A stretch of DNA of 64,000 nucleotides from Ginglymostoma cirratum (Eukaryota). Each line of letters opens with the position of its first letter. Position 1 is the stretch's first letter. Location: the NCBI GenBank assembly GCA_024137785.1, contig JAHRHZ010000144.1, positions 51,482,801-51,546,800 on the forward strand, written 5' to 3'. The notes beneath the pieces are model-generated. The model was not told the DNA's origin and did not search any database. It worked only from the letters and a program-made list of their open reading frames with translations. Shown in pieces: positions 2,564 through 60,598 of the stretch. The translations under genes and the position numbers were made by a program.

Positions 2564-4424
2564 TTTTATTTGGAACTGACATTTTGCATGAGATGCAAAA
2601 TGATATCACCTCCTGATATCCTATCATTTCCCTGTAATTTTATTACAACTTCACAATCTAACTTGTCTCAGTGTTTTAACCTGTGGTAGTGTTTGATTTA
2701 AACTATGTTATTGATGATTGATGCTGTATTAATTGATGTCAAAATTTGTTTGAGAATCAATGTTCTATGAAGAGAGCAACTGGCGTATTATGTGCATTAA
2801 TCCGCATTGATACTACATTGCCATCGTAACCTCCATCATGTACTGTGTGCAGAATATTTGTATCCCTTATAATGCTGACCATGGCGTATCTGCAGAATAT
2901 GGTACACGTCATAAGTTATACACTGTTATCCAACCCTTGAAGACCTTATGCTTTCCAAACTATTTTTGCAAAAAAAAATTGATGATAAAAACCTTAAGGG
3001 TTGTTATAATTTTCTGTGTGGGTTTTCGCCATCTGTTGTAATTCTCACTTTCAGGTTATAAGACAGTTTTTCCTTTAAACAGAATGAGGATATAGATATA
3101 GAAAACATTATTTAACTTAGGCAAGATTATTCCTGAAGTATATTCTCTGTCCCACCCATGTATGTGTCATGCTGATTTCAATACAATTATTTTAATTTAC
3201 AGTACATTTCATTAATATTTATTTGTAAATAGCTTTCTTTTAAACACAATTCTTATACAAATGCATTGATCACAATCATAGCCAATGAAGTCCATTTATT
3301 ATTCATACTGTACTTTCATGCTCTTTAATTAATCCATTTTTATTCTAACTTCCACAAAGTATTTTTTATTGTTACAGTAGCATTCACCATTCTCACAATC
3401 AGGCTTCATTGCTTGCCTCCTTTCCATTGCACTGTGCATTGTGTCATCTTTGCATTTTATACTGATTTGTTGTTTTCCAGTAACTCATCTACAAATTTTT
3501 CTTCATAATGTTGCTATTTTGCAATTGTTTATGGCTGCATCAATTACATGTTTGCTATTATACCAGTTACATTACCTGTTAACTACTTGAGAAGTGTTAA
3601 GTGTTTATGAATCTTTTCTTGTCGGACTCAATTGCTACAAACTATGAATCCCAATGCTTTTGTCAGTGGTTCGGATATGCTTTAAAAATGTAGACTTCTC
3701 TGTTGTATCATTTTTGAAGAAAGAAGAAAGAAGGAAGAAAAATCTCATTGTTCAAATGTTGTATGAGAAGTTGTTATGGCAACACTACTCTATGTTATTG
3801 TTTGCTTTCGTGTTTTCTAAAATATGCCTCTTAAGACAGCACTTGAATCTGACCAAGGTTTACTTTTGTATAGTTTCATAATAGTACACTGACCTGAAGT
3901 CTTTAGGAATTTATCTCGCATTTCCTGTGATTTCTGCTGGTATGTATAATGATGTTTTCTGCATTGAATTTATTTGCTGGTTTTGATTGTATGATGGGAT
4001 TTATTCTTCTTTTACAGTTGTATCCAATTAATGTTTGGAGTTCAGTATTGCCACTTTCGAGGTTGTAAATTTCCTATGTTTCCCGTGTGACTATAATATT
4101 TGCTTTGATTGATTTAGAAATGTTTTGGCTGAAAAATTGTCAAATTAGATATTAAGGACTTAATTAATATCAATTACCTGAACTGTTTTTCTGTTGTTTT
4201 GCACATTATTGTAAGTTGCACTAAATATCAGTGTAATCAAACTAGCAGATAGCTCTCCCAAATTCTATCTCACTCTCAAATGTTTGTTGAACACTTTTTC
4301 AGAACGAAATCTTCATCTATAGTTTTGATAGATCGCTGATAGATGTTATTATATGCTGGGATTGGAAATTTTTAGCAGTGAAACATACATGAGTGAGTTT
4401 GGTGGAGAGGGGCCAATACAGAAT

Positions 4425-5085
4425 TAGGAATACAATACATGGAAACAGGGATTGGGTCATTCAATGGTAGTGGCTATTTTGTCATTCAATGAGATACTGG
4501 CTGATCTGTGGCTCAACTCCATCAACCCAACTTGGCCTCATATCCCTTAACAACTTTGATTGGTAAAACATTATCAATCTTTAAGTTTAAAATAATTAAT
4601 GCAAGAGACATTAATTCCTTTCTTTTTAGATGAGAATATTGCACTTCTACCACACTTTGCATGAACAGTTTCCCTGTTTCTCTCCTTAATCATTTGGCTC
4701 TGATTTTAAGATAAAGTCTCCTTGCCCCCAACATCAACATTTTTTATGAGCATGAAAATGTCTCCCTGTACCTGTCCTATCAATTCCATACAAAATGATT
4801 TAAAAAATCAATAAAATAACTCATTTATCTCTTATATTCCAAGGGATACAAATCTAGGTTATGTAATCCTTCCTCATAATCTAACCCACACAGCCCTGAC
4901 CAATTCTAGTAAATCTGCACCATGTTCCTTCCAAGGCCAAACTGCATGTTCTAAGATGTGGCACACAGTACTGCACACAATATTCCACTTGTGCTCATTC
5001 GAGGGCATTGTATGGCTGCAGATAAACTTTTTGTCCTTTATATTTTAGTCCTAGTCCTCTAGTTTCAAAGGTTATCGACCTTGTA
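4425..5085 (-). mobile_element. Old CR1-group LINE 3' fragment (appears to continue at ~7270-7600)
   Basis: Degenerate reverse-strand CR1 3' end and RT C-terminus; ccttatcaaatgccttctgg (DFQKAFDK motif on the minus strand) at ~7403. Confidence 0.6.
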
Positions 5086-7180
5086 GTGTTTGATTGTACT
5101 TGTTGCATCGTCTATTTGTATGCATGGATTTGCAATTTCTTTGGACCTCCACTGCTCCTAGCTATTCAACATTTGAAAAATATGCTTCACCTGATGGTCC
5201 CTCTAGAGACCACAGTCCTTCACTTTGCAAATATGTATGCTCTTCTGATCAGAGCAAGGCAAATGCACTTCTTTGAAGAAATGTCATGCCTCCTTTGATG
5301 AAGTCCATGTGTTATCCTTAAGGGAGGGTTTGGATTTTAGCTGCACTCTCGAGGAGTGGCATCGTGGCAGTGCCCAGGCCGGTCTAGCCTCGAAGAGGAG
5401 GTTGATGGACTTGGTCAAGTCCTTTGACCTGGCAGCCGTTTGGTGAAATCTCCACACTGGCTCCACTTTTGTGATACCTGGGATTGCAGCATCGAGGATT
5501 AACTGACTGTGCATTTCACGGGTGTAGATTCCCTGCATTCTGGCAGCTTCCATGTAGCAGGTGTCATGCACAGATCACCATGTGGTGCAGGCAAGTCTCA
5601 CTCAGTTCTGTGCCCAGCTAGGATCCGTATACTGGCACTTTAACAATCTGCTGCTGGAGCACAAGTAGTTCCGGGACTTGTTCCACTGGTTCTGGGCTGG
5701 CTGGAGAAGGAAGCAGGGGTCTTCTCCTCCTTGATGAGGTGGCAGGAGATGGGCAAGTCTCATGTCCTTGCCTTTTGTCAGGGGTATATGAAGGAGCGTC
5801 AACAAAGAGGTGGAAATTGAGGATCAAGGAGCTGGAGAAGAGGGCTCTGGACCTGGAGACACAACTCAGTCATATTGACATGGACCCAGCCTGTGGGGAG
5901 ACTATGAAGGAAGATGGGAAGGGGATGCTGAGGGACCCGATCAATGTCTGGAGTAGAGTTGACTTGCACTGGGTCATCCTACCGTCAGTAGTAGCGGCTA
6001 TCATCAGAGATCTCCTGCTCAGGAACCCACACCTCCACCATTGCAGGTTTGAATGGCAGACAGAGGGGAGGGTCTTGGCCATGGGAGTGACCAGAATCGG
6101 GCATGTGCTGGATGGTATAGGCCTGTGCTGGATGTTGGTGCAGCAATTGGGAAATAAGGCAGCAGTGGACATCCAGCCGGCAGCCAATTCCATCCATTGC
6201 CTGAAAATGGCAATGCTCAGACCCGACTTTGTACATCATTTGAAGGATGCTCAGGAGCGTCATGGAATCCCATATGCATGCACCCCTGTTTGGACTGAAT
6301 TTCACTTTGATCCCAGGTTCCTGAACCTCCCTCAGGAGCCTAGGCCCCACAGCCTGACCTGCCTCATAGGAAAGTCCTATGAGTCTTTCTGCCTGGTGTG
6401 GAAATGCTTTTTGTATGGCCTGCTACTGCACACCATTCATTTCGACTCCTTTGTCCACCATCCCTTAGCATATTTATTTACCGCCAGGCAGTGGGATCCC
6501 AAGTGGAGGGCCCTTCCTTTTTCTATCAGGTCCATGAATTAGATGGTGTTGCATGTAACAGTCCCATGTGACCACACATTGCAGCGGTTCCCGGACTCCC
6601 AGCCAAGTGTTTATTTTGCAGCGCTGTGGAGTCCATGTTTGTTGCGGGCAATTGTACCCCCTTTTTAGTCACTTGAAGAATCTTTTGTTATGCTTTTGGT
6701 TGCATTTCAGTCCCACACATTCCTGATCTTTGGGCATCTGGGTTGTGGTCAAGTCAGAGGACCTCTTTGTTTGTCTGCTCCTGCGCCTGGCCAAGGTTTG
6801 GCTTTGAACAGGTGCATGCAGCAGGCTATGGAGGGGGTCATTTCTGCTGACTGTCTGACCGTCTTCCACAGCCAAGTTCGTGCCTGGATTTACTTGGCCA
6901 GAAAGCACACAGTGTCCACCAAAACTTTCAATGCCTTTAAAGAGAAATGTATACTGCAGGGGGTAGAGTGCTTCATCTCCCCTTCCAACTCCATTTTGAT
7001 TTAGCCCTTTCCTACTGTCCCTACCATTTCCTCAGCTTTGATGATTTGCATTGCCCTTAATGGGTTTCAAATGGTGATTCACTGGTAGTTAACGGAGGAA
7101 GGAAAAACATGTGTCATTTGGTGATGAGAGAAAAAGCATTCAGTTGCGTGTAAGAGCACTTCTAGATATAAAATAATAAG
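5086..7180 (+). mobile_element. Tx1/L1-clade LINE remnant: AP-endonuclease fused to the C-terminal domain, RT missing
   Basis: EN motifs LHFANMYA, DFSCTL (GDFN), SRIN (SRID), DHH, YWHFNNLLLE; then ELEKRALDLE directly followed by post-RT IRDLLLRNPHL; Tx1-type C-terminus LIFGH...FISPSNSILI*. Confidence 0.75.
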
Positions 7181-7984
7181 GTACATCTGGGGTATGGGTC
7201 TGCAGAACTGTCTGTCCTGAGCTGGGACTAGTCCATGTATGCCACAAGTAGTGGCTCTTTTGGGTTCAACAATAGATGTTGTTCCTTTCCAATTGGGCTT
7301 CCTGAGTTATTACAACTACCTAATCAATCTCCTAACCAGACCAATAATGTGCGTCCACTTCTGTGAATTTTACTTTAGCTGATTTTAATCTCTTAAATGG
7401 AACCTTATCAAATGCCTTCTGGAATTCCATATGATAACAGACCTATAGAAATCCCCTAACTATTTCTTTAGATTTCTTTAGTTACTTCCTCAAATAATTT
7501 GACTTTGTTTTTAGATCTGATCTGCTCTTTACAAATTAATGTGTGCTCTCCCTAATCAGTTCACATTTCCGTAAGTGGTGTTCCCCTGCCTTTAATGATA
7601 GATTTCAATAATTGATAGGTCCGTGATTTCACAACTTCTCTCATTTTCCTTAAGAGGAAATAAAAGCCTAAGTGGATTCATATTCACAATCAACTGAAGA
7701 TGGAAGTCAGTGAGTCAGAATATTTTAAATGTGGCATCTAAGTTTTTTTTTAATCAGAAACTTCTTATTATGACTATTCATTAATGTGACTTCAAAAAGG
7801 TTTATTACAAAACAAAATGTGCTTTATTTATCTATGAATGAAATATAATCATCGTCTTCTTTATGGCCATGAATACTATTGTAACTACAGCAATGGAAAT
7901 AGTGATGCAAACAGTATCATGATATCATGAAACTTCACGCGATATATCTGTCAGCAGAGTGAGCATAAATACTTCACATACAAC

Positions 7985-8225
7985 AGAAACCGAAAAAACT
8001 GGATGCTGTAAATCAGGAACAAAAACAGAAGTTGCTGGAAAAGCTCAGCAGCTCTGGCTGCATCTATGAAGAGAAATCAGAGTTAACATTTTGAGTCCAG
8101 TGACCCTTTCTCAGTTCTGAATAGAAGTTCTGAGGAAAAGTCACTGGACCCGAAATGTTAACTCTGATTTCTCTTCACACATGTTGCCAGATCTGCTGAA
8201 CTTTTCCAGCAACTTCTGTTCATAT
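7985..8225. mobile_element. Penelope-like terminal repeat (family C), inverted pair
   Basis: acagaagttgctggaaaagctcagcag...gagttaacattttgagtccagtgaccc is mirrored by gtcactggacccgaaatgttaactc...cttttccagcaacttctgtt. Confidence 0.8.
8126..8164 (+). ncRNA. Degenerate minimal hammerhead ribozyme motif (family C)
   Basis: AGUU-CUGAGGA-A-AAGUC-ACUG-GACCC-GAAAU-GUU-AACU. Helix I AGUU/AACU is intact; helix II is damaged relative to GGGUC/GACCC in sister copies. Confidence 0.55.
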
Positions 8226-8289
8226 AAAATAGATTTGATTTTAAGCTTTTTAATTTACAGTTCATAAATCTCATCAACAGGTTCAGCCA

Positions 8290-9022
8290 ACTATTATTTG
8301 TTGTCACGTATTGAGATACAGTGAAAAGTATTTTTTTGCATGCTAAAAAGGCAGATTGAACCATACGAAGTGTATCAGGTAGTGAGAACGAAGTGGAGAA
8401 TACAGCCACACAGAAGGTGTAGACAGAGAGATCAACATTGATATTAGAGAGGTCTGTTCAAAATTCTGATAATGGCGGGAAAGAAGCTGTCCTTGAATCT
8501 GCTTGTATGTGTATTCAAATGTTTATATCTTCTGCATGACAGAAGAGTGTGGAAGAGAGTAAAACTGGGGTGGGAGATGTCTTTGATTATGTTGGTTGCT
8601 TCCCTAAGGCAGCAAGAAGTATCAATGGAGTCAATGAATGGAAGGCTGGTTTGAGTGATGTACAGGACTGTGTTCACAACTCTGTAGTTTTTTTGTAGTC
8701 TTAGGAAGAGCAGGCACCACACCATGCTATGATGCATACAGATAGGATGTTTTCTATAGTGCATCTATAAGAAACTGGGAAGGGTCCTTGTGGACTTGCT
8801 GAATTTCCTTATCTTCATGAGAAAGTAAAGACATTGTGCTTTCTTGACTGTCGTGGAACAGGACAGATTTTTGGTGATTATCACTCCTATGAACTTGACG
8901 CTATCAACCATCTTCACCTCAGCACCACTGATGCAGACAAAGGTGTGTCCTCCATTCTGCTTCCTGAAGTCAACGATCAGCTCCTTTGTTTTGCTGACAT
9001 TGATGGAGAGATAGTTGTCTTT
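8290..9022 (-). mobile_element. Rex1/Babar LINE 3' fragment
   Basis: ATNIIKDISHPSFTLFHTLLSCRRYK...RFKDSFFPAIIRILN; near-mirror of the 3' end of the copy at 29572-31151. Confidence 0.85.
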
Positions 9023-11057: not shown

Positions 11058-11176
11058 GGTCCCAACCTGAAATGTCAGCTTTCCTGCTCCTCTGGTGCTG
11101 CCTGGCCTGCTGTGTTCCTCCAGCTCCACACTGTGTTATCTCTGACTCTAGCATCTGCAGTTCTTACTATCTCTGA
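11058..11176 (+). mobile_element. Penelope-like terminal fragment (family A) inserted in Gypsy gag
   Basis: gaaatgtcagctttcctgctcctctggtgctgcctggcctgctgtgttcctccagctccacac matches copies at 16885, 28623, 29400, 37471 and 60390. Confidence 0.8.
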
Positions 11177-11884: not shown

Positions 11885-12258
11885 CGGTACATTTAGACAA
11901 TGAAAGCCATCAGTTTAACTGGGACAAGGTAACCATCGTAGCCCACGCCAAACATAGACACGCGCAGGAATTCCTAGAGGCATGGTTCTCCATCCGTAGT
12001 GCAATCAACAAACACCTAGAATTGGACCCCATGTACAGATTGATATGGATCAAAACCAGAAATGTCAGTACTCACCATAACAGACCAGACAGTATAAATT
12101 CCAAGCAGAGTAGAATAACATCGTTTCATTGGAGGCTCCACTGATGATGTCACATAGCATGGTGACAAAATGTCTGAATGAGAACAAGTCAGCTCAGTGA
12201 GCAAGTGAACAATCTCACCTACAACCCGAGGTACAGATTTTTGCCAAGACTTTAGAAT
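11885..12258 (+). mobile_element. Penelope (GIY-YIG) 3' fragment, family B, inserted in Gypsy pol
   Basis: HLDNESHQFNWDKVTIVAHAKHRHAQEFLEAWFS..AINKHLELDPMY, then a decayed hammerhead cactgatgatgtcacatagcatggtgacaaaatgtctg at ~12139. Confidence 0.85.
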
Positions 12259-16620: not shown

Positions 16621-16884
16621 CTAGTTCGAACTGCTCTAAAAATTTTAATTTATCAAATTCTCCCAATTCCCCATTGGTCAATCAAAATGGAGGGATTGGA
16701 AGCGTGTTTGTGTGTTGGCATTATCAGAAATCCAGATAATTAAAATTTAGATGACGAGATGAAAAATGGCCAAATGTCAAAAATGATGATGGTGGCTACC
16801 TATAACACTCTATGGCGCTGCAGCCCTGTATGACCAGGATGGGTTGGCAGGTTCGGTCGACAGTGGTAGCAGAGGTTTATGACA

Positions 16885-17013
16885 GAGATAAAAGGTACTG
16901 CAGATGCTGAGAATCCGAGATAACAAGGCATGGGGCTGGATGAACACAGCAGGCCAAGCAGCATCATAGGAGCAGGAAAACTTGACGTTTCGGGCCTAGA
17001 CCCTTCATCAGAA
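16885..17013 (-). mobile_element. Penelope-like terminal fragment (family A) with 12-bp TSD
   Basis: TSD aggtttatgaca at 16873-16884 and 17014-17025. Confidence 0.9.
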
Positions 17014-17014
17014 A
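16981..17014 (-). ncRNA. Minimal type I hammerhead ribozyme motif with intact core (family A)
   Basis: Reverse complement reads UUU-CUGAUGA-A-GGGU-CUAG-GCCC-GAAAC-GUC-AAG: both conserved boxes, a 4-bp helix II and a GUC triplet. Confidence 0.72.
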
Positions 17015-17519
17015 GGTTTATGACATTGTCTTTAAAATGACCAGGATGGATTAGTGGAGCATCAGGGTTGGGGTGTAATGCTGGGGACTTGCTCCTCCAA
17101 CACATCATGGTGAGATTGTTAGAATGACTGTCTTTTTCAAGGGGTTGTCTCCATCTCTGGGTTAGAGTGCCACAAAGGATGCTTTCTTGAGTGGGCTGTC
17201 TCTAACCATTCTTTTAGCATCCAGGCAGCTGTGCCTTGATGCCTGCTTCTTCTGGCCACAATTGGTGGGACCAGCTATGGTTCAGTTCCAGAGGCTAAGC
17301 CTTAGGAGGGACAGTGTCCATGGCTGGTCCAGAATCTTGGCATGGATCAGTAACTGGGGCTGGTCCTGGATTGGGATTGGGATCAGGGATTTTGTTGGGG
17401 CTCAATCAATAACTGTTCTGGGGTCTGCTTCAGGACTTGGGTTTGGGTACACTTTCCCCAGTTCACCTAGAACAACATGAAGTTGGTGGCTGTTGCTTTG
17501 GGCTCTGTAGGCCTTTAAC

Positions 17520-20370: not shown

Positions 20371-20540
20371 ATAAAAACCGAAAGAACTGCGGATGCTGTA
20401 AATCAGGAACAAAAACAGAAGTTGCTGGAAAAGCTCAGCAGGTCTGGCAGCATCTGTGAAGAAAAATTCAGAGTTAACGTTTTGGGTCCAGTGAACTTTC
20501 TCATGAGGAAGGGTCACTGGACCCGAAACGGTAACTCTGC
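20371..20540. mobile_element. Penelope-like terminal repeat (family C), inverted pair, in pol
   Basis: cagagttaacgttttgggtccagtgaac / ggtcactggacccgaaacggtaactctg mirror each other; flanks ctctgc(t/a)tg. Confidence 0.8.
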
Positions 20541-20564
20541 ATGTCAGCAAAGTCCAATATACGT

Positions 20565-21254: not shown

Positions 21255-24200
21255 ATAGAACACAGAAGATAGAACATAGAGCATAGAGCATAGAACATAG
21301 AACTCTACAGCACAGTACAGGCCCTACGTCCCACGATGTTGTGCCGACCTCTTATCCTACTAAGATTAATCTACCCTGCATACCCTACATTTTACTGTCC
21401 TCCATGTGCCTATCTAAGAACCGCTTAAAATTCTCTAAAGTATCTGACTCCACTACCACTGCCGGCAGTGCATTCCACATGCCCACCACTCTGTGTGTGA
21501 AGAATCTACCTCTGACATCTCCCCTATACCTTCCTCCAATCACTTTAAAATTATGCCCCCTCGTAATACTCATTTCCACCCTGGGAAAAAGTCTCTGACT
21601 ATCCGCTCTATCCATGCCTCTCATCATCTTGTAAATCTCTATCAAGTCACCTCTCATCCTTCTTCGCTCCAATGAAAAAAGCCCCAGCTCCCTCAACCTT
21701 TCCTCATAAGATCTGCCCTCTAGTCCAGGCAGCATCCTGGTAAATCTCCTTTGTACCATCTCTAAAGCTTCCACATCTTTCCTGTAATGAGGTGACCAGA
21801 ACTGAACACAATATTCCAAGTGTGGTCTAACCAGAGTTTTATAGAGCTGCAGCATAATCTCACAGCTTTTAAACTCAATTCCCCTCCCGATGAAAGCCAA
21901 CACACCATACGCCTTCTTTACAACCCTATCAACTTGGGTCGCAACTTTAAGTGATCTATGGACATGGACCCCAAGATCCCTCTGTTCCTCCACACTGCCG
22001 AGAATCCTGCCATTAACCCTATATTCTCCATTCAAATTCGACCTTCCAAAATGAATCACTTCACATTTGTCTGGGTTGAATTCCATCTGCCACTTCTTTG
22101 CCCAGCTCTGCATCCTGTCAATGTCCTGTTGTAACCTACGACAGCTCTCCATGCTGTCCATAACTCCACCAACCTTTGTGTCATTACTAACCCACACTTC
22201 CACTTCTTCATCCAAGTCATTTATAAAGATCACAAAGAGCAGAGGTCCCAGAACAGATCCCTGCGGCACACCACTGGTCACTGAGCTCCAGGCTTCCATC
22301 TACTGCCACTCTCTGTCTTCTATTGGACAGCGAGTTTTGTATCCAGACAGCCAAATTTCCCTGAATCCCATGCCTCCTTACTTTCTGAATGAGCCTACCA
22401 TGTGGAACCTTATTGAATGCCTTGCTAAAATCCATATACTCCACATCCACTGCTTTGCCTTCATCGATGTGTTTTGTCACATCCCCAAAGAATTCAGCAA
22501 GACTTGTGAGGCATTACCTGCTCCTCACAAAGCCATGCTGATTATTTTTAATCAAACTGCGCTTTTCTAAATAATCATAAATACTGTCTCTCAGAATCCT
22601 CTCCAATAATTTTCCCACCACAGAAGTAAGACTGACTGGTCTGTAATTTCCAGGATTATCCCTTTTCCCTTTCTTGAACAAGGGAATGACATTTGCCACA
22701 CTCCAATCTTCTGGCACTACTCCAGTGGACAGTGAGGATGCAAAGATCAATGCCAAAGGGGCAGCAATCTCTTCCTTTGCTTCCCGTAGTAACCTTGGTT
22801 ATATCCTGTCTGGCCCAGGGGACTTATCTATCCCTCATGTTTTTCAAGATTTCTAGCACATCCTCCTTCCTAACAACAACCTGTTCGAGCATATCTGCCT
22901 GTTTCATACTGTTCTCACAAACAACAAGGTCCCTCTCACTGGTGAATACTGAAGCAAAGTTTTCATTAAGGACCTCCCCTACCTCCTCCTGTTCCATGCA
23001 CAAGTTCCCTCCACTATCCCTGATTGGGCCTACCCTCACTCTGGCCATCCTCTTGTTCCTCACATAAGTATAGAAAGCCTTGGGGTTTTCCTTGATCCTA
23101 CCTGCCAAGGCTTTCTCATACCCCTTTCTAGCTCTCCTAAGTCCATTCTTCAGTTCCTTCCTGGCTACCTTGTAGACCTCTAGAGGCCTGTCCAGTCCTT
23201 GCTTCCTCAACCTTAAGTAAGCTTCATTCTTCCTCTTGACTAGATGTTCAACATATCTTGTCATCCAAGGTTCCTTCACCTTACTATCCTTTTGTTGCCT
23301 CAGTGGGACAAATATATCCAGTACTTGTAGCAACTGCTCCCTAAACAGCCTCTACAATTCTATCATGCATTTCCCTGAGAACATTTGATCCCAATTGGTG
23401 CTTCGTAGTTCTTGCCTAATAGCATTGTAATTCCCCCTTCCCCAATTAAATACTTTCCCATACCGTCCGCTCCTATCCCTCTCCATGACTATGGTAAAAG
23501 TCAGGGAGTTGTGATCACTATCACCGAAATGCTCTCCCACCGAGAGTTCTGACACCTGACCTGGTTCATTGCCAAGCACCAAATCCAATATGGCCTCCCC
23601 TCTAGTCGGCCTATCTACATATTGAGTCAGAAATCCTTCCTGGACACATCTGACAAAATCTGCTCCATCCAAACTATTTGCACTTAGGAGGTTCCAGTCT
23701 GTATTAGGGAAGTTGAAGTCACCCATGACGACAACCCTATTACTTTTGCACCTCTCCCAATCTGTTCCTCAGCATCTCTGTTACTACTGGGGGGTCTATA
23801 GAAAACTCCCAATAAAGTGACTGCTCCTTTCCTGTTTCTGACTTCCACCCATACTGACTCAATGGAGAAACCCTCCTCAGCAACCTCCCCTTCTGCAGCT
23901 GTGATACCATTCCTGATTAGGAATGCCACTCCCCCAACTCTTTTACCTCCCTCCTATTTCTTTTGAAACATCTATACCCTGGAACATCCAGCAACCATTC
24001 CTGCCCCTGTTATCCAAGTCTCTGTAATGGCCACAACATTGTAGTTCTAAATACTGATCCATGATCTAAGTTTGCCACCCTTACTCCTGACACTTCTTGA
24101 ATTGAAGCAGACACACCTCAACCCATCGCACTGACTGCCACTCTGCCCGATCAACTGCTTATCCTTCCTCACAGACTCTCTGCTTGCTCTATCTGTCTAT

Positions 24201-26420: not shown

Positions 26421-28622
26421 TATTTTGTCAATTGTTTTCTTCTAATTTACTACTCTCTCTCTCTCTGTGTCCCATGGATCCCTGGCACTATATTGATCCT
26501 CAACTCTTTTCACTATCTCTTACCTCATAGGTCCCTGGCCCTGCTCTAGCTTCTCTGTATTCTCATGGGTCCTGTGTTTGGCTTCCTTGTCTTTGTTTCC
26601 TCTGGGGTCCCAACCTGGTACTAGCATATGCTTGATTTCCTTTTCCATGGGATCCCAACCCTGTACTAACACTGCTCTCTCAATCTCTCACCAGGGTTCA
26701 TTCAGGGCACAGGAGTTAAATGGAGACAAGGTCTGGCTCTTGCTAAATTTCCACCTCGTTGCACACTGCACTATGCTAGCTCTGAGCTCTGTCTTCCACA
26801 CATTACAAACACTTGGTTATGGCACAAACTGATCGTAAACCTTCACCCCCTTTCACCCACTTGAATCATGACCAGCATGTTGGGCAGCTGACCTCTTACA
26901 CTCAGGCTCATGCTGGGTGTCAGGCACAAGAAAGACACCATGCAGAAGTAAGGCAAAACATATAAGGAAATGCCTTAGGTTTCCAAAATAAATCGTTTAG
27001 GTGCTCATTTTGTTGTTTGTGTTATCGTGATGTTCTGTATACATTAAAAGTGAGTTATGGTGTCTACTTTGTTCCATTTACTCTGATTATTTAAAAGCTG
27101 GTGAATGGCATGAGTTCCATTGAGCAGGATCAAGTTGTGAAATTGATGGGTGGGTGCATGTCTGCAGGTATGAGATTTATTGTTAATGGGATTTGGGAGT
27201 TGTTTGTACAGGAATTGTGAGGAGAAGATTTTAATGCTACAAATATATTCACCAAGGGAGCCATACTTGGATGATGGTGTTGCTCAGTTCTCAGGCAGGC
27301 AGGTTTGTGGCTGTAGGCACCGAGCAGACCGTGAAAAGCTCTATCATCCACCAATTTCTACCATTGTTTGACACTCACTCTAATCCTCTCTATAGTGTCA
27401 TCTTTTACAGCTGTATCACACCACTGCTATCAAGGGCATGTTCGCTGAGATGTACTGAAGGGCATCTCCAGATCAGTCCAGGTAGTGGAACATCATTTTG
27501 AGAAAACCAATGCCTTGTTCTTTTGTTGACCTAGCAATAAATTGGCTCTGACTGGATTGTTCCTATGCCTCTGTAATAGTGTTTCTCCCTGACAATGTGA
27601 ACTGGATTGTGAAAGTATTCCTTCCAAACTAGATGCAAATTCAATCATTTTGTTGTGGCTGTTACCTAAGACTGCTTTATCTCTGAGGTCACTAATTAAT
27701 CCTTTCACAGTATAAATGTCAAGTTTAATATATCTTGCTCTCTGTTCAATTCCAAAACATGGTGACGTAAGAAAGCATGTCAAAAGCACTCAAGTCCTCA
27801 CCCAGGCTATTATTGTCAATCTGATTTTTCCAGTTTATATGTGAATTAAAGACATACATGATGATTGCTATCCCATCCTTTTATCACAACAACTCAATAT
27901 TTCTTCTCATATACTTTGTCTCACATTGTGATTATTATTAAGACCTGTAGACCATTGCTACTAGTGACCTCTTTCCCAGAATATTTGTCATCTCCATTCA
28001 AAGTGGTTCTACATTCTGATCTCCTAAACCAAGGTCATCATTGCCCAAATTCCATCCTTTACCAACTTTATATTTTAGTTCAGTGCCAAATACTCCTCAA
28101 TATTCACTTAGTGAACTTACAAATATGGGGGAAGTCATACTAAGCAAACAGATGCATTGGAGGCTGACAAATGTCCAGGTCTAGATGGGATGTCATCCTA
28201 AGGTCTTTGAAGAGATGAGCCAGTAGATGAATTGGTATTACTTTTCCAAAATTTCCTCAATTCAGGAAATATTCCATCTTACTGGAAAGCAGCAAATATC
28301 ACCCCTCTATTCAAGAAAGGAGGGAGCCAGAAAACAAGAAATTATAGGCCAGTTGGCTTGATGTCTGTTATGGGGAAGTAATTGAAATTGATCATTAAAG
28401 AGATGATAGCTTAGGAAAATTCAAGATAATCAGGAAGAGTCAGTGTGGTTTACTGAAAGGGAAATCATATTGAACGAACTCATTAGAGACCTTCGGAGGA
28501 ATATCATGAGCTGTGGATAAAAGGAGCCTGTAGGTGTACTGTACTTAGATTTCCAGGAGGCATTTGATAAGGTGCCACAGCAAAGTTATTGTGGAAAATA
28601 ACAGCTCAGGGTATTGAGGTAA

Positions 28623-28717
28623 CAGGGTGTAGAGCTGGATGAACACAGCAGGCCAAGCAGCACCAGAGGAGCAGGAAAGCTGATGTTTCGGGTCTGGACC
28701 CTTCTTCAGAAAAATTG
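28623..28717 (-). mobile_element. Penelope-like fragment (family A), 15-bp TSD
   Basis: TSD agggtattgaggtaa at 28608 and 28718; core CUGAAGA-A-GGGUCCAGACCC-GAAAC-AUC. Confidence 0.85.
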
Positions 28718-29367: not shown

Positions 29368-29492
29368 TAGAGATAATAGGTACTGCATATGCTGAAGGGT
29401 CTGATGAAGGGTCTAGGCCCAAAACGTCAAGCTTTCCTGCTCCTATGATGCTGCTTGGCCTGCTGTGTTCATCCAGCTCCACACCTTGTTAT
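29368..29492 (+). mobile_element. Penelope-like fragment (family A) with short inverted 5' piece, 14-bp TSD
   Basis: TSD ccaggaatcagtgc at 29354 and 29493; ctgatgaagggtctaggcccaaaacgtc (GAAA changed to AAAA). Confidence 0.85.
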
Positions 29493-29571
29493 CCAGGAAT
29501 CAGTGCATTGTCATATTAGGATGGGTTGGACAGTGTAAGTTTACATCACTGGAGTTTAGAAGAGTTTAGAA

Positions 29572-34137: not shown

Positions 34138-34320
34138 CAACAAAAACAGAAATTGCTGGAAAATCTTAGCAACTCGGGAGAGAGAAATCAGAAGTGTCAC
34201 TGGACCCGAGACGTTAACTCTGATTTCTTTCCACAGATGCCGCCAGAACGGCTGAGATTTTGCAGCAATTTCTGTTTTTGTTTCTGATTTTCCAGCATCC
34301 GCAGCTCGTTCGGTTTTCTA
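34138..34320 (+). mobile_element. Penelope-like terminal repeat (family C) with short inverted arm, in the proximal promoter
   Basis: caaaaacagaaattgctggaaaatct mirrors agattttgcagcaatttctgtttttg; contains gtcactggacccgagacgttaactctg. Confidence 0.8.
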
Positions 34321-37430: not shown

Positions 37431-38050
37431 GAGGCTGTTGATTTGCTCGCCAAGCTGGCTTGTTCTTGTTCAGAGATAAAAGGTACTGCAGATGCTGGAG
37501 AATCCGAGATAACAAGCTGTGGGGCTAGATGAACACAGCAGGCTAAGCAGCATCATAGGAGCAGGAAAGCTTGACGTTTTGGGCCTAGACCCTTCATCAG
37601 AAATGGGGGAGGGGAAGAGGGTTCTGAAATAAATAGGGAGAGGGGGGAAGGTGGATAGAAGATGAATAGAGGAGAGGATAGGTGGAGATGAGGCAGACAA
37701 GTCAAAGAGGTGGGGATGGAGCCAGTAAAGGTGAGTGTAGGTGGGGTGTAGGGAGGAGATAAGTCAGTCCAGGGAGGACGGACAGAAATTTCATCACCAT
37801 GCTAGGTGACATATTCCGGTCCATATATAAACCCATACAGATCAAAATGGGAAATTACACTACTCACCATAATGGACCAAACAGTATAAATTCCAAGCAG
37901 AGTAGAATAACACCGCTTCATCGGAGGTTCCACTAATGATGTCTTCTCGCATGGTGACCAAATGTCTGAATGAAAACAAGCCAGCTCGGTGAGCAAGTCA
38001 ACAACTTCACTCACAGCCCGAGCCATAAATCTTTGCCAAAATTTTGAACA
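37431..38050 (+). mobile_element. Penelope family B terminal repeat with inverted partial copy, 10-bp TSD
   Basis: TSD ttttaaaaac at 37421 and 38051; body matches 12030-12258. Confidence 0.85.
37471..37785 (-). mobile_element. Penelope family A 3' segment nested in family B
   Basis: Same terminus as 16885, extended by a purine-rich body ggggagggga...ggaggacggacag. Confidence 0.85.
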
Positions 38051-47322: not shown

Positions 47323-50300
47323 ATGGAGGGGAGTCGGGAACCTAATCTTCGGGTTTGGGGGCTGCAGGCTTGGGGAAAGGGGATGATGATAATTGTGAAG
47401 GGAAATTGCAGTATTGTCAAGGGGGATATGGTAAAGTGTGGATGGAATTGAGTTTATGTGAGAACATGTTTGTCTACAGTCAGGAATACTCTGGCTTAAG
47501 GTGAGCTCAATGCAGGATTACACCTGGCAAGGTCACCTCATATGCCAAAGGCTGGAGGGGAAAGGTGGGCAGGTGCAGGCATATATAAAGTGGTTTGTTG
47601 GAGTCTTGGAGAGGTGTGAAGCCTATGGAAATTATGGGTAGGATTACCAGAAGGGGGATCTGAATGTTCAGGGCCTTGATGTCACCTAGAGGCAGAGACT
47701 GGATTCCACTGGCCAAAGACTGCTCACAGTCACTTTCCATCGTGCTGGAAATTGAAAGTATGCAATGGGAAGAAAATGGCTGCAACCACATTTGGAATTG
47801 GTGAGGTAAGTATCTTGACCTAGGAGGGAGAGGGATGGAGACCCTACCAATGTGAGTCCCTTTAAAGGGAAGCAACATTACACACAGACCCATGCACTAT
47901 ACGGGACGCAGACCCACAGGGTCCCTAATCATGGGCGATCCAAATGCATTGATTCCCTGTTTGCTGTGTACACCCCTGCCCCAGATATCTGTGACCACTT
48001 CATTCATGCCAACATTTTTGGACACATAAACCAGGGAAAGAATAAAGATATTATAGGATGAGGCAGGTATTGGAAGGGCCCATAGCACTCTCCATACCTT
48101 GTTCATCTTGTTCAGAAATGGTGTAGCAGGTTCTCAACACAGACATGATCCATGGTCCATCAAGTGTGGACATCAAGTTGGATATCATGCTGACATGGTT
48201 ACAGTCGTGCAATTGTGAGAATTTATTTAGTGTGCAATGTCACCTGTGCCACCGAAGTGCCCTCAATAGGCTCTCTTCTTCCTTTCTCTCCCACAACATT
48301 GTAATGTAGTCTGTAGTTCTGTAATGTGGAGGACCTGTTCAGCAGTGGAGTCTGTTGGCCCTGGAGGTTTGGTTGGGTGACCCTGGTGGTATTTGTGTCT
48401 GGATGGCCCAGACATGCTAAGGGGTGAAATTCCCTTGGCTGGAACTTCTAAAGGTCAGAAGGGGAGGAAGGGTGAGGAATCGGGGTAGAGGCCCAGCCAC
48501 CTCTGGAGTCTCCTGAGAAGAGACATCTGAGGGGCTGTGAGTAGTTTCACCTTCAGTTGGGTGCCTCCATATCTGTGGAAGTCAGAATTTTCTGAGGATG
48601 TAGGTGCAAGCATACAACTGCACTCTCCTCCAGCTCAGGTTTTCAATCTTTCTAGATTACACTCAGAAGCACAATCTGGTGAGCAAGTCACTGATAAAGA
48701 GTCACCGGACTTAAAATGTTAACTCAGCTTTCTTCCCACAGACCTGCTGAGTTTCTCCAGCAATTTCTGTTCTTGTTTGTGAGTATGGCATTGACATGTC
48801 TTTGCAGCAAGTTGAGGAAGAAGGCCTGGCACTCTGAGGACTGCCAGAAAGAAGCTACCTGCTCACCCAAACACAAAGGACGTGTGGTCACCCTACCGAG
48901 ACAGGCACAGGAAAATCAGGAAACTTTGCCAGAAGCATTTGGTAAGCTGGAACGCAGGAGTGAGGAGTCAACCAACATTATCATTATTTCCCTGCACTGA
49001 CTACACAGCATTTACTGGAGAGTCTAACTTCTGATGGCAATTACTCGGCAGCTGGGATCCTTGGGAGAAGTTTCGAGTTCTGAATTCGAGTGGGAGACTT
49101 CAGAGGTTTCCAATTTATTAAATCGTTGGCTAGTAAAACTTGGAAGATTAAGTGCCTAATTCCTGGCTAACTATAAAACGGACTCCCCGTTCATTAATGC
49201 TAACAACCCCTCTGCCATCTGACAGACACCTGACATCCACCTTCTAGAGAACTGATACCCTTCACCCTTACTCTCACACAACCACCATAGTGATTAAACA
49301 CATTGCATCCACAGTTGGGAATTCTGCTCAAGACCTAACCACACTTGTCAGCTCTGTGTAGCTTATTGTGCTCGAAGTGACTTCTCCAATTTTTACTGGT
49401 TCACAAGCAGTGCTGTAAAGACACTTAATTTGGGTTCAGGCCTTTTAGTTTTCATTCGCCTACCAGATTTCCTGATCCCAGGAATTGAAGATAAGATGGC
49501 TATTAAAGCTGAGGCATTTCATTTGAATTGCATCTTAGATTTCCAGAGCTTTCTAATATGTTTAAAAAGGATTCCAGACAAAGAGATACTGCCAGCTGTC
49601 CTTCGGCTTGGTAACTTAAGTCCCAGTTACCCAGGCTCATTAGTGGAGGTTGGGAGGGAAAGCATCACAGATGCATCTCACTACTGTTGGAAATATTCTC
49701 ATGGAGATCTCTCCTTTTTGATTCTGTGTAATTCAGTGGGAAAGATCAAAGGCGTAATGCTTTTTTGATTGCAGACCTGCCATATCTCCTAGGGTTTGTG
49801 AAGTCAGTATATCTAATTGCAGTTGTAAATGTCAGCATCTTATCAAATGCTATCACTATAGAAAATCTAAATTTTAAGGAAAGGAATTGAAATGCATCGC
49901 ATCTGGACTGCGTAAAGTTAAATTACAGTTGAATTATTGTGACCAGATTGAAATGTTTTCTATGAATGGATTTCTTTTTGTGTTTATTTAAGTTCAGGCA
50001 GGGGATGTTTTCTGATAGAACAGATCCTGCTGTTACAACATATAAAGCATGATTTGCAGCAGATGCACTTGCAGCAACCATTCCAGACTAGCACTGTAAG
50101 ATCATTGGCTGATAAAGACTGCAGATTATATGAAATTAATCTATTTGATGGACGTTTCAGATGAGGATGATCAAAATAAAATTAGAATTTTCGCTGTTGA
50201 CCTCTATAATGACTGTTTCAGCCAAACTAGCTCGATATACTGCTTCATTCAGTGAAGAGATTATTTATCCTGAATTCAGCAGGGAATGCAAGAGTGCTAA

Positions 50301-58872: not shown

Positions 58873-59920
58873 TCTAAAGTTTTAGAGTAGATTTGTAGCT
58901 CGGGTTGTGGATGTTGTGGTTGGTTGGCTCGCCGAGCTGGTTCGTTGTTTTTCCGCAGACGTTTCATTACCCTGCTGGGTTTCATTACCCTGCTAGTACC
59001 AGGCTTCTAGGAATTCACGTGCTTGTCTCTGCTTTGCTTGTCCCAGGATTTTAGTGTTGTCCCTGTCGAATTCGTGGTTCTCTTTATCCATGTGGTTAGA
59101 GATGAGTAAGTATTGGTCGTGTCTTTTTGTAGCCAAGTGATGTTTCTGTACCTTTGTTGTTAATTTCCTTCCTTTTTGTCTGATGTAGTGTTTTTCACAG
59201 TCTCTGCAGGGAATCTTGTATATGACATTGGCCCTGTCCATAGTGGGTAGTGGGTCTTTGGTTCGGGTGAGCAGTTGGCGTAGGGTTGATGTGTGTTTGT
59301 GTGTGACTCTGATGCCCAGTGGTCATAGGAGTCTTGTGGTCACTTCAGATATGTTCCTGGTGTAAGGTTGTGTGATGAGTGTGTCGGGGCGTGTAGTATC
59401 TTCCTTGTGTTGTTTGTGTGATAAGCATCTTCTGACCCAGTTTTTCAGGTATCCATTGTCTTTGAATACCTGGAAGAGGTAAGATTCCCTGCAGAGACTG
59501 TGACAAACTCTAAATCAGACAAACAGGGTGGAAATTAACAACAACTGTACAACAATATCAATGGCTACAAAATTACATGACCAATGCTGACTCATTTCTA
59601 TTCATATGGATAAGGAGAACCACCAATTCGACTGGGACAACACCAAGATGCAGAGACAAGCACGGGAATTCCTAGAAGCCTGGTATTCAATGAAGAAAGC
59701 CATCAACAAACACATAGAGCTTGACCCCATATACACTCCACTGCAAAGGAAAACCGGAAGTGAGGTAATCCAGCTCAGTGGACTCCAGAGTTTAAATAAA
59801 AGGCAGGAAAATACAACGGCGCTTCGTCGGAGGCTGCACTGATGATGTTACTCAGCAGAGTAATGAAATGTCTGCGGAAAAACAATGAACCAGCTCAGCG
59901 AGCCAACCAACCACAACATA
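58873..59920 (-). mobile_element. Penelope element with GIY-YIG endonuclease, two inverted halves, 11-bp TSD
   Basis: NVIYKIPCRDCEKHYIRQKGRKL..H..REFLEAW (58993-59241); opposite-strand copy 59482-59920; TSD gttaggtagtt at 58862 and 59921. Confidence 0.92.
59836..59875 (+). ncRNA. Minimal hammerhead ribozyme motif (family B type)
   Basis: GCA-CUGAUGA-U-GUUACUC-AGCA-GAGUAAU-GAAAU-GUC-UGC: 7-bp helix II, helix I GCA/UGC, directly 3' of the GIY-YIG ORF. Confidence 0.75.
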
Positions 59921-60389: not shown

Positions 60390-60598
60390 ACAGAGATAGT
60401 AGGAACTGCCGATGCTGGAGAGTCTGAGATAACAAGCTGTAGAGCTGGATGAACACAGCAGGCCAGGCAGCATCAGAGGAGCAGGAAAGCTGACATTTCA
60501 GGACTGGACCCTTCTTCAGAAAATAGTGCTATATTTTCTGAAGAAGGGTCCAGACTTGAAACGTCAGCTCTCCTGCTCCTCTGATTCTGCCTGGCCAC
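60390..60598. mobile_element. Penelope-like family A inverted pair, 10-bp TSD
   Basis: TSD cttcataatc at 60379 and 60599; + arm core CUGAAGA-A-GGGUCCAGACUU-GAAAC-GUC (60538-60565). Confidence 0.88.

Follow-up and report, generated by a model that had tools for sequence, protein, structure and literature searches.

A Minimal Hammerhead in the Terminal Repeat of a Neptune-Type Penelope-Like Element in Ginglymostoma cirratum, and Short Copies as Its Likely Run-Off Products

Metazoan Penelope-like elements (PLEs) carry minimal hammerhead ribozymes in their terminal repeats (pLTRs), which are inactive as monomers and show low activity as dimers (PMC4209133; here and below, statements on published systems refer to the accessible portions of the cited sources). 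In vitro, the Anolis element uses uncut RNA as the template, its reverse transcriptase (RT) starts internally, both target strands are primed, and cleavage by its motif needs the assistance of protein (PMC11167929). Penelope itself carries an internal promoter (PMC2377424), and both the formation of partial tandems and the role of the hammerhead are stated as open questions (PMC2377424, PMC8557442). A further class, the non-LTR retrozymes, has been found in the one chondrichthyan sampled (PMC7229834; bioRxiv 10.64898/2026.07.22.740005). We analyzed a 64,000-nucleotide stretch of Ginglymostoma cirratum contig JAHRHZ010000144.1, referred to here as the window, in which a sequence-only reading had noticed a hammerhead core among short, dispersed repeats. 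We assign a probability of about 0.7 to the reading that this is a genuine minimal hammerhead at the front of a Neptune-type mRNA, that the copy shown and most other short copies are run-off by-products, and that the cut lies off the integration path.

The motif, its families, and its parent element

The 132-bp copy at 16883–17014 (minus strand) is read as the pLTR of a Neptune-type PLE. It is enclosed by a 12-bp target-site duplication (plus strand, left copy 16873–16884 and right copy 17014–17025), starts 3 nt 5′ of the hammerhead core, and ends at the distal RT start site. Its segment at 16883–16917 (minus strand) is the optional ∼34-nt tail, as described in PMC11167929, lying between the two 3′-end clusters of the family. 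The minimal core reported at 16981–17014 is confirmed, and its strand is minus. With the C3 of the core numbered 0, the predicted cut falls between +27 and +28. On that strand, the UUU of helix I (17012–17014) forms 3 bp with 16983–16981, a further pair present in full copies being lost; C3–A9 (CUGAUGA) occupies 17005–17011; an extra A at 17004 precedes G10.1; helix II (16992–17003) consists of three G-C pairs and one U·G pair, 4 bp in all, with a 4-nt loop; and the GAA of G12–A14 lies at 16989–16991. The palindrome ACGU (A15.1–U16.1, 16985–16988), which can form helix III only with a second copy, and C17 (16984) follow, the predicted cut, by the definition in PMC4209133, separating 16984 from 16983. 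Every position that defines the minimal type I hammerhead (C3–A9, G12–A14, A15.1, U16.1, and H17) is thus intact, and helix II shows both G10.1–C11.1 and the extra nucleotide after A9. The claim that helix III has shrunk to the self-complementary ACGU holds for families A, B, and C; in family D the sequence is AGCU.

The bare boxes alone exceed chance weakly in the window, with 18 matches vs 8.8 expected and 3 of 100 shuffles reaching 18. The motif scan proposed as a check succeeded when the descriptor also required helix II (5 window matches vs a mean of 0.02 over 50 shuffles), and failed with the Rfam models, which gave 10 matches, none of them a ribozyme, and no hammerhead at E ≤ 5. The same descriptor found 32 matches vs 0–1 in 10 shuffles in a genome sample of 357,209 unmasked bases taken as 60 evenly spaced stretches.

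All five of the variants named alongside this copy (28682, 29400, 37573, and the two arms of 60390–60598) are present, yet only the copy at 16981, one of six, has core, palindrome, and helix II all intact. The older-subfamily copy at 28616–28712 (minus strand) starts at −3, has no tail, carries G16.2>A, and is flanked by a 13-bp duplication. At 29369–29501 (plus strand), an inverted tail (29369–29395) stands in front of a copy (29400–29501) that starts at −1 and carries G12>A, within a target duplication of at least 10 bp. The longer copy at 37471–37785 (minus strand), which reaches 186 nt into the 3′ untranslated region, also has G12>A. The head-to-head pair at 60391–60596 (60391–60522 minus, 60535–60596 plus) is surrounded as a whole by a 10-bp duplication, and both arms start at −3 and have decayed; the motif at 60496 has three changes, that at 60538 keeps its boxes with two wobbles at the base of helix II, and helix II is damaged in both. 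A seventh family A copy (11066–11175, plus strand) starts at +17 and lacks the 5′ half of the core. CpG decay is indeed the main damage, as had been noticed, with six of the eight changes in the named copies falling in the two CpGs. N7 is U or A, as stated (21 and 17 of 38 family A copies, respectively). The difference in helix II between subfamilies is real (U·G vs U-A, plus a loop change) but one-sided, and is not covariation.

We aligned 12 real copies from families A, B, and C, which represent three independent lineages; family D was omitted from the pair count because it aligned out of register. Across these families, 93.8% of the cells are paired, seven of the eight pairs, in helices I and II, change on both sides, and the catalytic core positions are invariant; the score is reached by none of 500 shuffles, and pairing in slid controls is ≤50%. 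Family D, by reading, shows AGCU where the other families show ACGU, and its helices I and II are built from different pairs. The covariation offered as a check is therefore found between families, whereas changes within family A are one-sided only. The two-sided changes indicate a fold under selection in the source elements, with support that rests on few independent families.

That these motifs are PLE termini is borne out by longer copies, which join them to an ORF for RT and GIY-YIG; the motif lies ∼260 nt past the stop of this ORF, in which GIY-YIG is C-terminal. One copy retains a 1049-aa open frame with PF00078 and PF01541 above cutoff, DKG and CCHH motifs read by eye against PMC8557442, and an RT–endonuclease linker, C-X4-C-X2-C, that matches the CX2-5CxxC of the Neptune clade, a linker common to Neptune and Nematis (PMC8557442). 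By these sequence marks, rather than by an RT tree, we take the parent to be a Neptune-type EN+ PLE. The termini likewise show what is expected of such elements: a pLTR with a hammerhead, an optional 30–40-bp tail, inverted 5′ copies, and target duplications. The ORF begins directly after the tail of the upstream repeat. In the ORF of locus L113, residues ∼200–295 form an N-terminal low-complexity Ala/Thr/Asp/Pro repeat of variable length. Frames of 2,000–3,800 aa were artifacts of masked runs and not real ORFs. Elsewhere in the window (21385–23768, minus strand) are broken pieces of a LINE ORF2 with endonuclease and RT-like translation, which we take by resemblance to be CR1-like.

The 4.36 Gb genome holds 74,561 intact family A cores and 54,204 exact matches to a 38-mer of the youngest subfamily, and 11 of the 38 family A copies in unbiased sequence are intact. 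Three more motif families (B, C, and D) were seen. Family B copies lie at 8001–8220 and 20391–20542 (both head-to-head pairs), 34192–34300, and 48691–48777; they have N7 = G, a 5-bp helix II, and the cut triplet GUU, every window copy is decayed, and their fold-backs are the source of weak miRNA-hairpin matches in Rfam. Family C occurs at 58911–59919 (an inverted pair, motif at 59839 on the plus strand), 11953–12253, and 37821–38045. Its helices differ from those of family A by compensatory changes, and in the window its motif sits after a GIY-YIG C-terminus, which by reading of the motif suggests a PLE link. Family D was read at L200:2297–2345 and ∼20 other loci, and many of its copies, with AGCU in place of ACGU, start ∼5 nt ahead of the core.

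Where copies begin and end, and how some are joined

From 113 young copies, we left out 21 that abut masked bases and placed the 5′ ends of the remaining 92 by gapped alignment. On the upstream side, 35 begin beyond −60, 3 in −60 to −7, and 25 in −6 to −1; on the downstream side, 16 begin in 0 to +7, 5 in +8 to +20, 1 in +27 to +30, and 7 in +31 to +46. A single cluster at −6 to +7 thus holds 41 of 92. An apparent second cluster at −69 was a reference indel that disappeared with gapped alignment. Among 30 elements that retain the ORF start, 11 begin at −5 to −2 and 2 at +26/+28. Genome-wide, starts exactly at the predicted cut are not enriched (328 vs 274 at the control position +44). The 3′ ends form two clusters, at +87 to +96 and +124 to +134, the pattern left when RT initiates internally and yields an optional tail (PMC11167929); in the cut region, +20 to +35, there are none among 18 unbiased copies and none among 167 placed copies anchored upstream.

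The base in front of these starts is informative. Of 1,777 genome-wide starts at −4, 910 are preceded by G and 867 by A or T, a G share of 0.51 vs 0.26 expected, while among the first 100 cut-site starts listed, 22 are preceded by G. The sequence at −4 fits the initiator consensus. In LINE-1, copying of the cap is marked by an additional G (PMC11702581). Because copies begin just before the motif, many of them with an added G, their likely template was a capped, uncut mRNA front. Transcription would then start at about −5/−4, which would make the hammerhead the first structure of the mRNA. For the copy at 16883–17014, RT likely initiated within the tail, close to the front of the element's mRNA, and ran off a likely capped 5′ end, in an RNA whose predicted ribozyme would still have been uncut. 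Head-to-head pairs may derive from priming on both target strands.

At young-family starts the T run at −3 to −1 is often longer by one T, suggesting slippage at the RNA front, and the young family has a second start cluster at +5. Near −26 (L113:7860–7875 and equivalents) is a splice-acceptor-like pyrimidine tract ending in AG, which the joint of L268 adjoins; helix I is where an intron terminates in Drosophila virilis (PMC4209133). Two raw-read RNA runs, compared with the repeat–ORF junction and the window locus, gave reads from other family copies only. These poly(A), unstranded runs are dominated by host transcripts: 82% and 98% of the reads continue into unlike sequence, strands are balanced, and no pile-up of molecule ends was seen in them. 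Depth is zero in the unique flanks of the 16981 locus, with 13 and 3 reads in the second run. None of the indexed records that contain family sequence is labeled as RNA.

The pile-up at −4 could instead mark a stop, with RT stalling at a C-rich tract, the endonuclease cutting cDNA at ATT, or T-rich microhomology guiding the joining. A related endonuclease prefers ATT (PMC11167929), and the sequence at −4 is ATT; many inverted joints form short A/T palindromes, and starts are scattered over −6 to +7 rather than fixed. Against a stop speaks the untemplated G excess, which is present at −4 and absent at the cut site. So do the more AT-rich tract near −35, where few ends fall (3 of 92 in −60 to −7), and families B and D, which have other upstream sequence and, by eye, also mostly start just before the core. 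We consider a stop improbable.

Equally improbable, in our estimate, is that the short 97–132-bp copies are nonautonomous units, SINE- or retrozyme-like, transcribed from an internal promoter and recopied in trans. They do retain the motif together with the deduced start site and at least one of the two RT start sites; roughly half of the young copies belong to this size class, and very many exist. Against this, a stretch downstream of the tail on which the anole element depends (PMC11167929) is missing from them, they carry the same variants as the ORF-bearing subfamilies, and no more than 11 of 38 copies in unbiased sequence are intact, with decay concentrated at CpG. Their arrangement also speaks against it. 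Family A copies in the window are solitary or head-to-head, so that the tandem of two or more complete units that marks a non-LTR retrozyme is absent; close pairs among the first 100 genome matches listed, counted by eye, are 13 head-to-head and 4 direct, and the loci read contained dispersed or head-to-head copies with no array of units. The proposal that the short dispersed repeats are mobile units was accordingly not upheld: their ends mark a capped RNA start and two RT start sites rather than a cut, and we do not regard them as independently mobile because they lack the ORF-start sequence, belong to the subfamilies of the autonomous element, and end as run-off products do. As run-off by-products, they would probably be dead on arrival.

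A second kind of copy bears on what RT does after reaching the cap. From 1,895 candidates for elements that contain the ORF start, we took the 40 with the best scores, of which 39 were fetched, 38 parsed, and 33 had a downstream repeat. In 16 of these 33, a proportion that is not a genome frequency because only the best-scoring candidates were sampled, an ORF fragment of 270–2,010 nt is fused directly to a second repeat starting at −6 to +2. The others comprise 10 internal deletions that keep 3′ untranslated sequence, 4 near full-length elements, 2 with other joints, and 1 masked. An untemplated G stands at the internal joint in 10 of the 16 units (p = 4e-4), an 11–16-bp duplication encloses the whole unit in 10 of 16, and the upstream repeat stops at −5 to −2. 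The 16 joints are all different, though break points recur. The same rare variants occur in the two repeats of 4 of 14 comparable jump units, and two further units of other types also show this; the repeats are discordant in L251, L257, and L259, at non-CpG or subfamily sites and in one case across subfamilies. An origin by later insertion of a short copy within an ORF was ruled out, since the ORF resumes after the second repeat in none of the 16. The joints point to template jumping.

Break points that recur in independent insertions (L240–L278) lie at ∼229, 270, 330, 365, 492, 644, and 1344 of the ORF and mostly end in A or C. At one joint, a six-A tract precedes the G, as if an early polyadenylated end had been the acceptor.

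In terms of the run-off reading, some cDNAs would have followed RT from the cap to an interior position, in that RNA or in a different one, and the acceptor RNA was then copied to its cap again, and such jumps would build units of terminal repeat, ORF fragment, and terminal repeat. The 20,458 long young copies genome-wide carry no G scar: of 153 with a changed base at −5, 9 have G among the first 100 listed, and of 155 at the control position −7, 15 have G among those listed. We therefore rejected obligate homologous strand transfer with a cap scar, and jumping is not established as a route to full-length copies, which may arise from a read-through RNA by initiation in its downstream repeat. 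In retroviruses, minus strong-stop DNA is a short initial cDNA that is synthesized close to the front of the RNA before its transfer. A broader proposal, which we offer tentatively and with the odds against it, is that PLEs follow a strong-stop-like route, in which RT primes on the target, starts in the tail, copies the uncut hammerhead to the cap, and jumps to a downstream part of the RNA. Such a route would build the pseudo-LTR tandems and leave tens of thousands of 100–130-bp failures, and ACGU pairing between the two hammerheads would keep the RNA ends together or decap the RNA rather than make the template.

The predicted fold and the proposed place of the cut

Energy models disfavor the active form. 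In the predicted monomer, the core pairs with the cut site at −9.3 kcal/mol vs −3.5 for the active helices; in the predicted dimer, the active form reaches −5.3 vs −28.8 for an alternative duplex; and helix II is absent from the prediction for the whole leader. The solitary 16981 copy, which has no partner in cis, is predicted to fold inactively. Dimer cleavage is reportedly the subject of a paper by Lunse, Weinberg, and Breaker. These predictions fit the absent monomer and low dimer activity described for such motifs (PMC4209133) and the protein-assisted cleavage in the anole (PMC11167929). We note that at 16883–17014 and in the L151 leader, the end of the tail is predicted to form a 10-bp pairing with the core. 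This pairing, which lies at the distal RT start site, would sequester the ribozyme; by eye, it was not seen in family B.

One could take the energies to mean that the motif no longer cuts and is kept as a structural, dimerization, or promoter element at the RNA front. Besides the predicted folds, this would agree with the lack of any genomic trace of cutting. It sits poorly with catalytic positions that are fixed across families while the helices covary, and with the anole motif, which cuts with added protein and shows C3/G8 rescue (PMC11167929); we rate it slightly below the two alternatives above. Least probable by some distance is the proposal of PMC4209133 that hammerheads cut a precursor to unit length and that the cut, possibly circularized, RNA is the template. 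In its favor, all four families retain the motif, the start lies at +26/+28 in 2 of 30 elements with the ORF start, and one internal joint (L262) lies at about +27, but cut-site starts are no commoner than the control, no 3′ ends fall there, and the upstream repeat of jump units halts at −5 to −2 instead of running round a circle, so that a cut or circular template as the main route for family A is already largely refuted.

Under the preferred reading, in which uncut RNA is copied, cleavage would most likely occur only if two copies on one RNA pair via ACGU, if an element protein refolds the motif, or both. The cut would remove a capped leader of 31–32 nt or trim read-through RNA, and its role would most likely be that of a decapping brake or a trimming or processing step, off the integration path.

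Comparison with known systems

The kind of ribozyme is already known (PMC4209133), and the motif alone is ordinary. It shares with the metazoan pLTR hammerheads of that work the core boxes, the extra nucleotide between A9 and G10.1, G10.1–C11.1, the palindromic 15.2–16.2, a short helix I, a predominance of solitary copies derived from truncated elements, and several families per genome. It differs in helix II, 4–5 bp here vs 7–8 in Schistosoma, and in number, with 74,561 intact family A cores vs ∼4,000–9,000 in coelacanth and Xenopus. The accessible portion of PMC4209133 mentions no shark, and the cut-and-circle model proposed in that work is not borne out by the copy ends here. Poseidon PAc of Anolis carolinensis (PMC11167929) is alike in its two internal RT start sites, which yield an optional tail, its uncut RNA template, its priming of both target strands, and the absence of RNA ends at the cut. 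The ORF starts after the tail in this Neptune-type element, whereas it starts inside helix II in PAc, and the accessible text of PMC11167929 contains no mapped transcription start, cap copying, or template jump.

EN+ PLEs of the Neptune/Nematis type, which have partial tandems and inverted pLTRs (PMC8557442, PMC3846280), share the C-terminal GIY-YIG with CCHH, the CX4CxxC linker, and DKG, as well as inverted 5′ copies, the tail, and variable duplications. In PMC3846280, as far as its accessible portion goes, inverted joints are explained by self-priming on antisense RNA, and template jumps are invoked for captured inserts only. Non-LTR retrozymes (PMC7229834; bioRxiv 10.64898/2026.07.22.740005) also have a type I hammerhead in small noncoding units related to pLTRs. 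They form tandem arrays, typically have canonical motifs, and give circular RNA, whereas family A copies are solitary or head-to-head with a minimal motif. A literature search in openly accessible article text found no published report of cap-marked starts or jumps in PLEs. Full-length LINE-1 insertions (PMC11702581) resemble the copies described here in the extra G at the run-off 5′ end. Unlike LINE-1 and retroviral strong-stop synthesis, taken together, the present case combines priming on target DNA with an acceptor that is internal to the ORF and nonhomologous, and no homologous transfer to a 3′ repeat is shown.

Set against these systems, a very young and very large family preserves, base by base, traces of a transposition cycle that the literature still calls unclear. 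These traces point to the RNA start, to an uncut hammerhead in the templates, and to an RT able to leave the cap and restart elsewhere. The jump joints supply precise predictions for the in vitro system already in use and make the mechanistic question directly testable.
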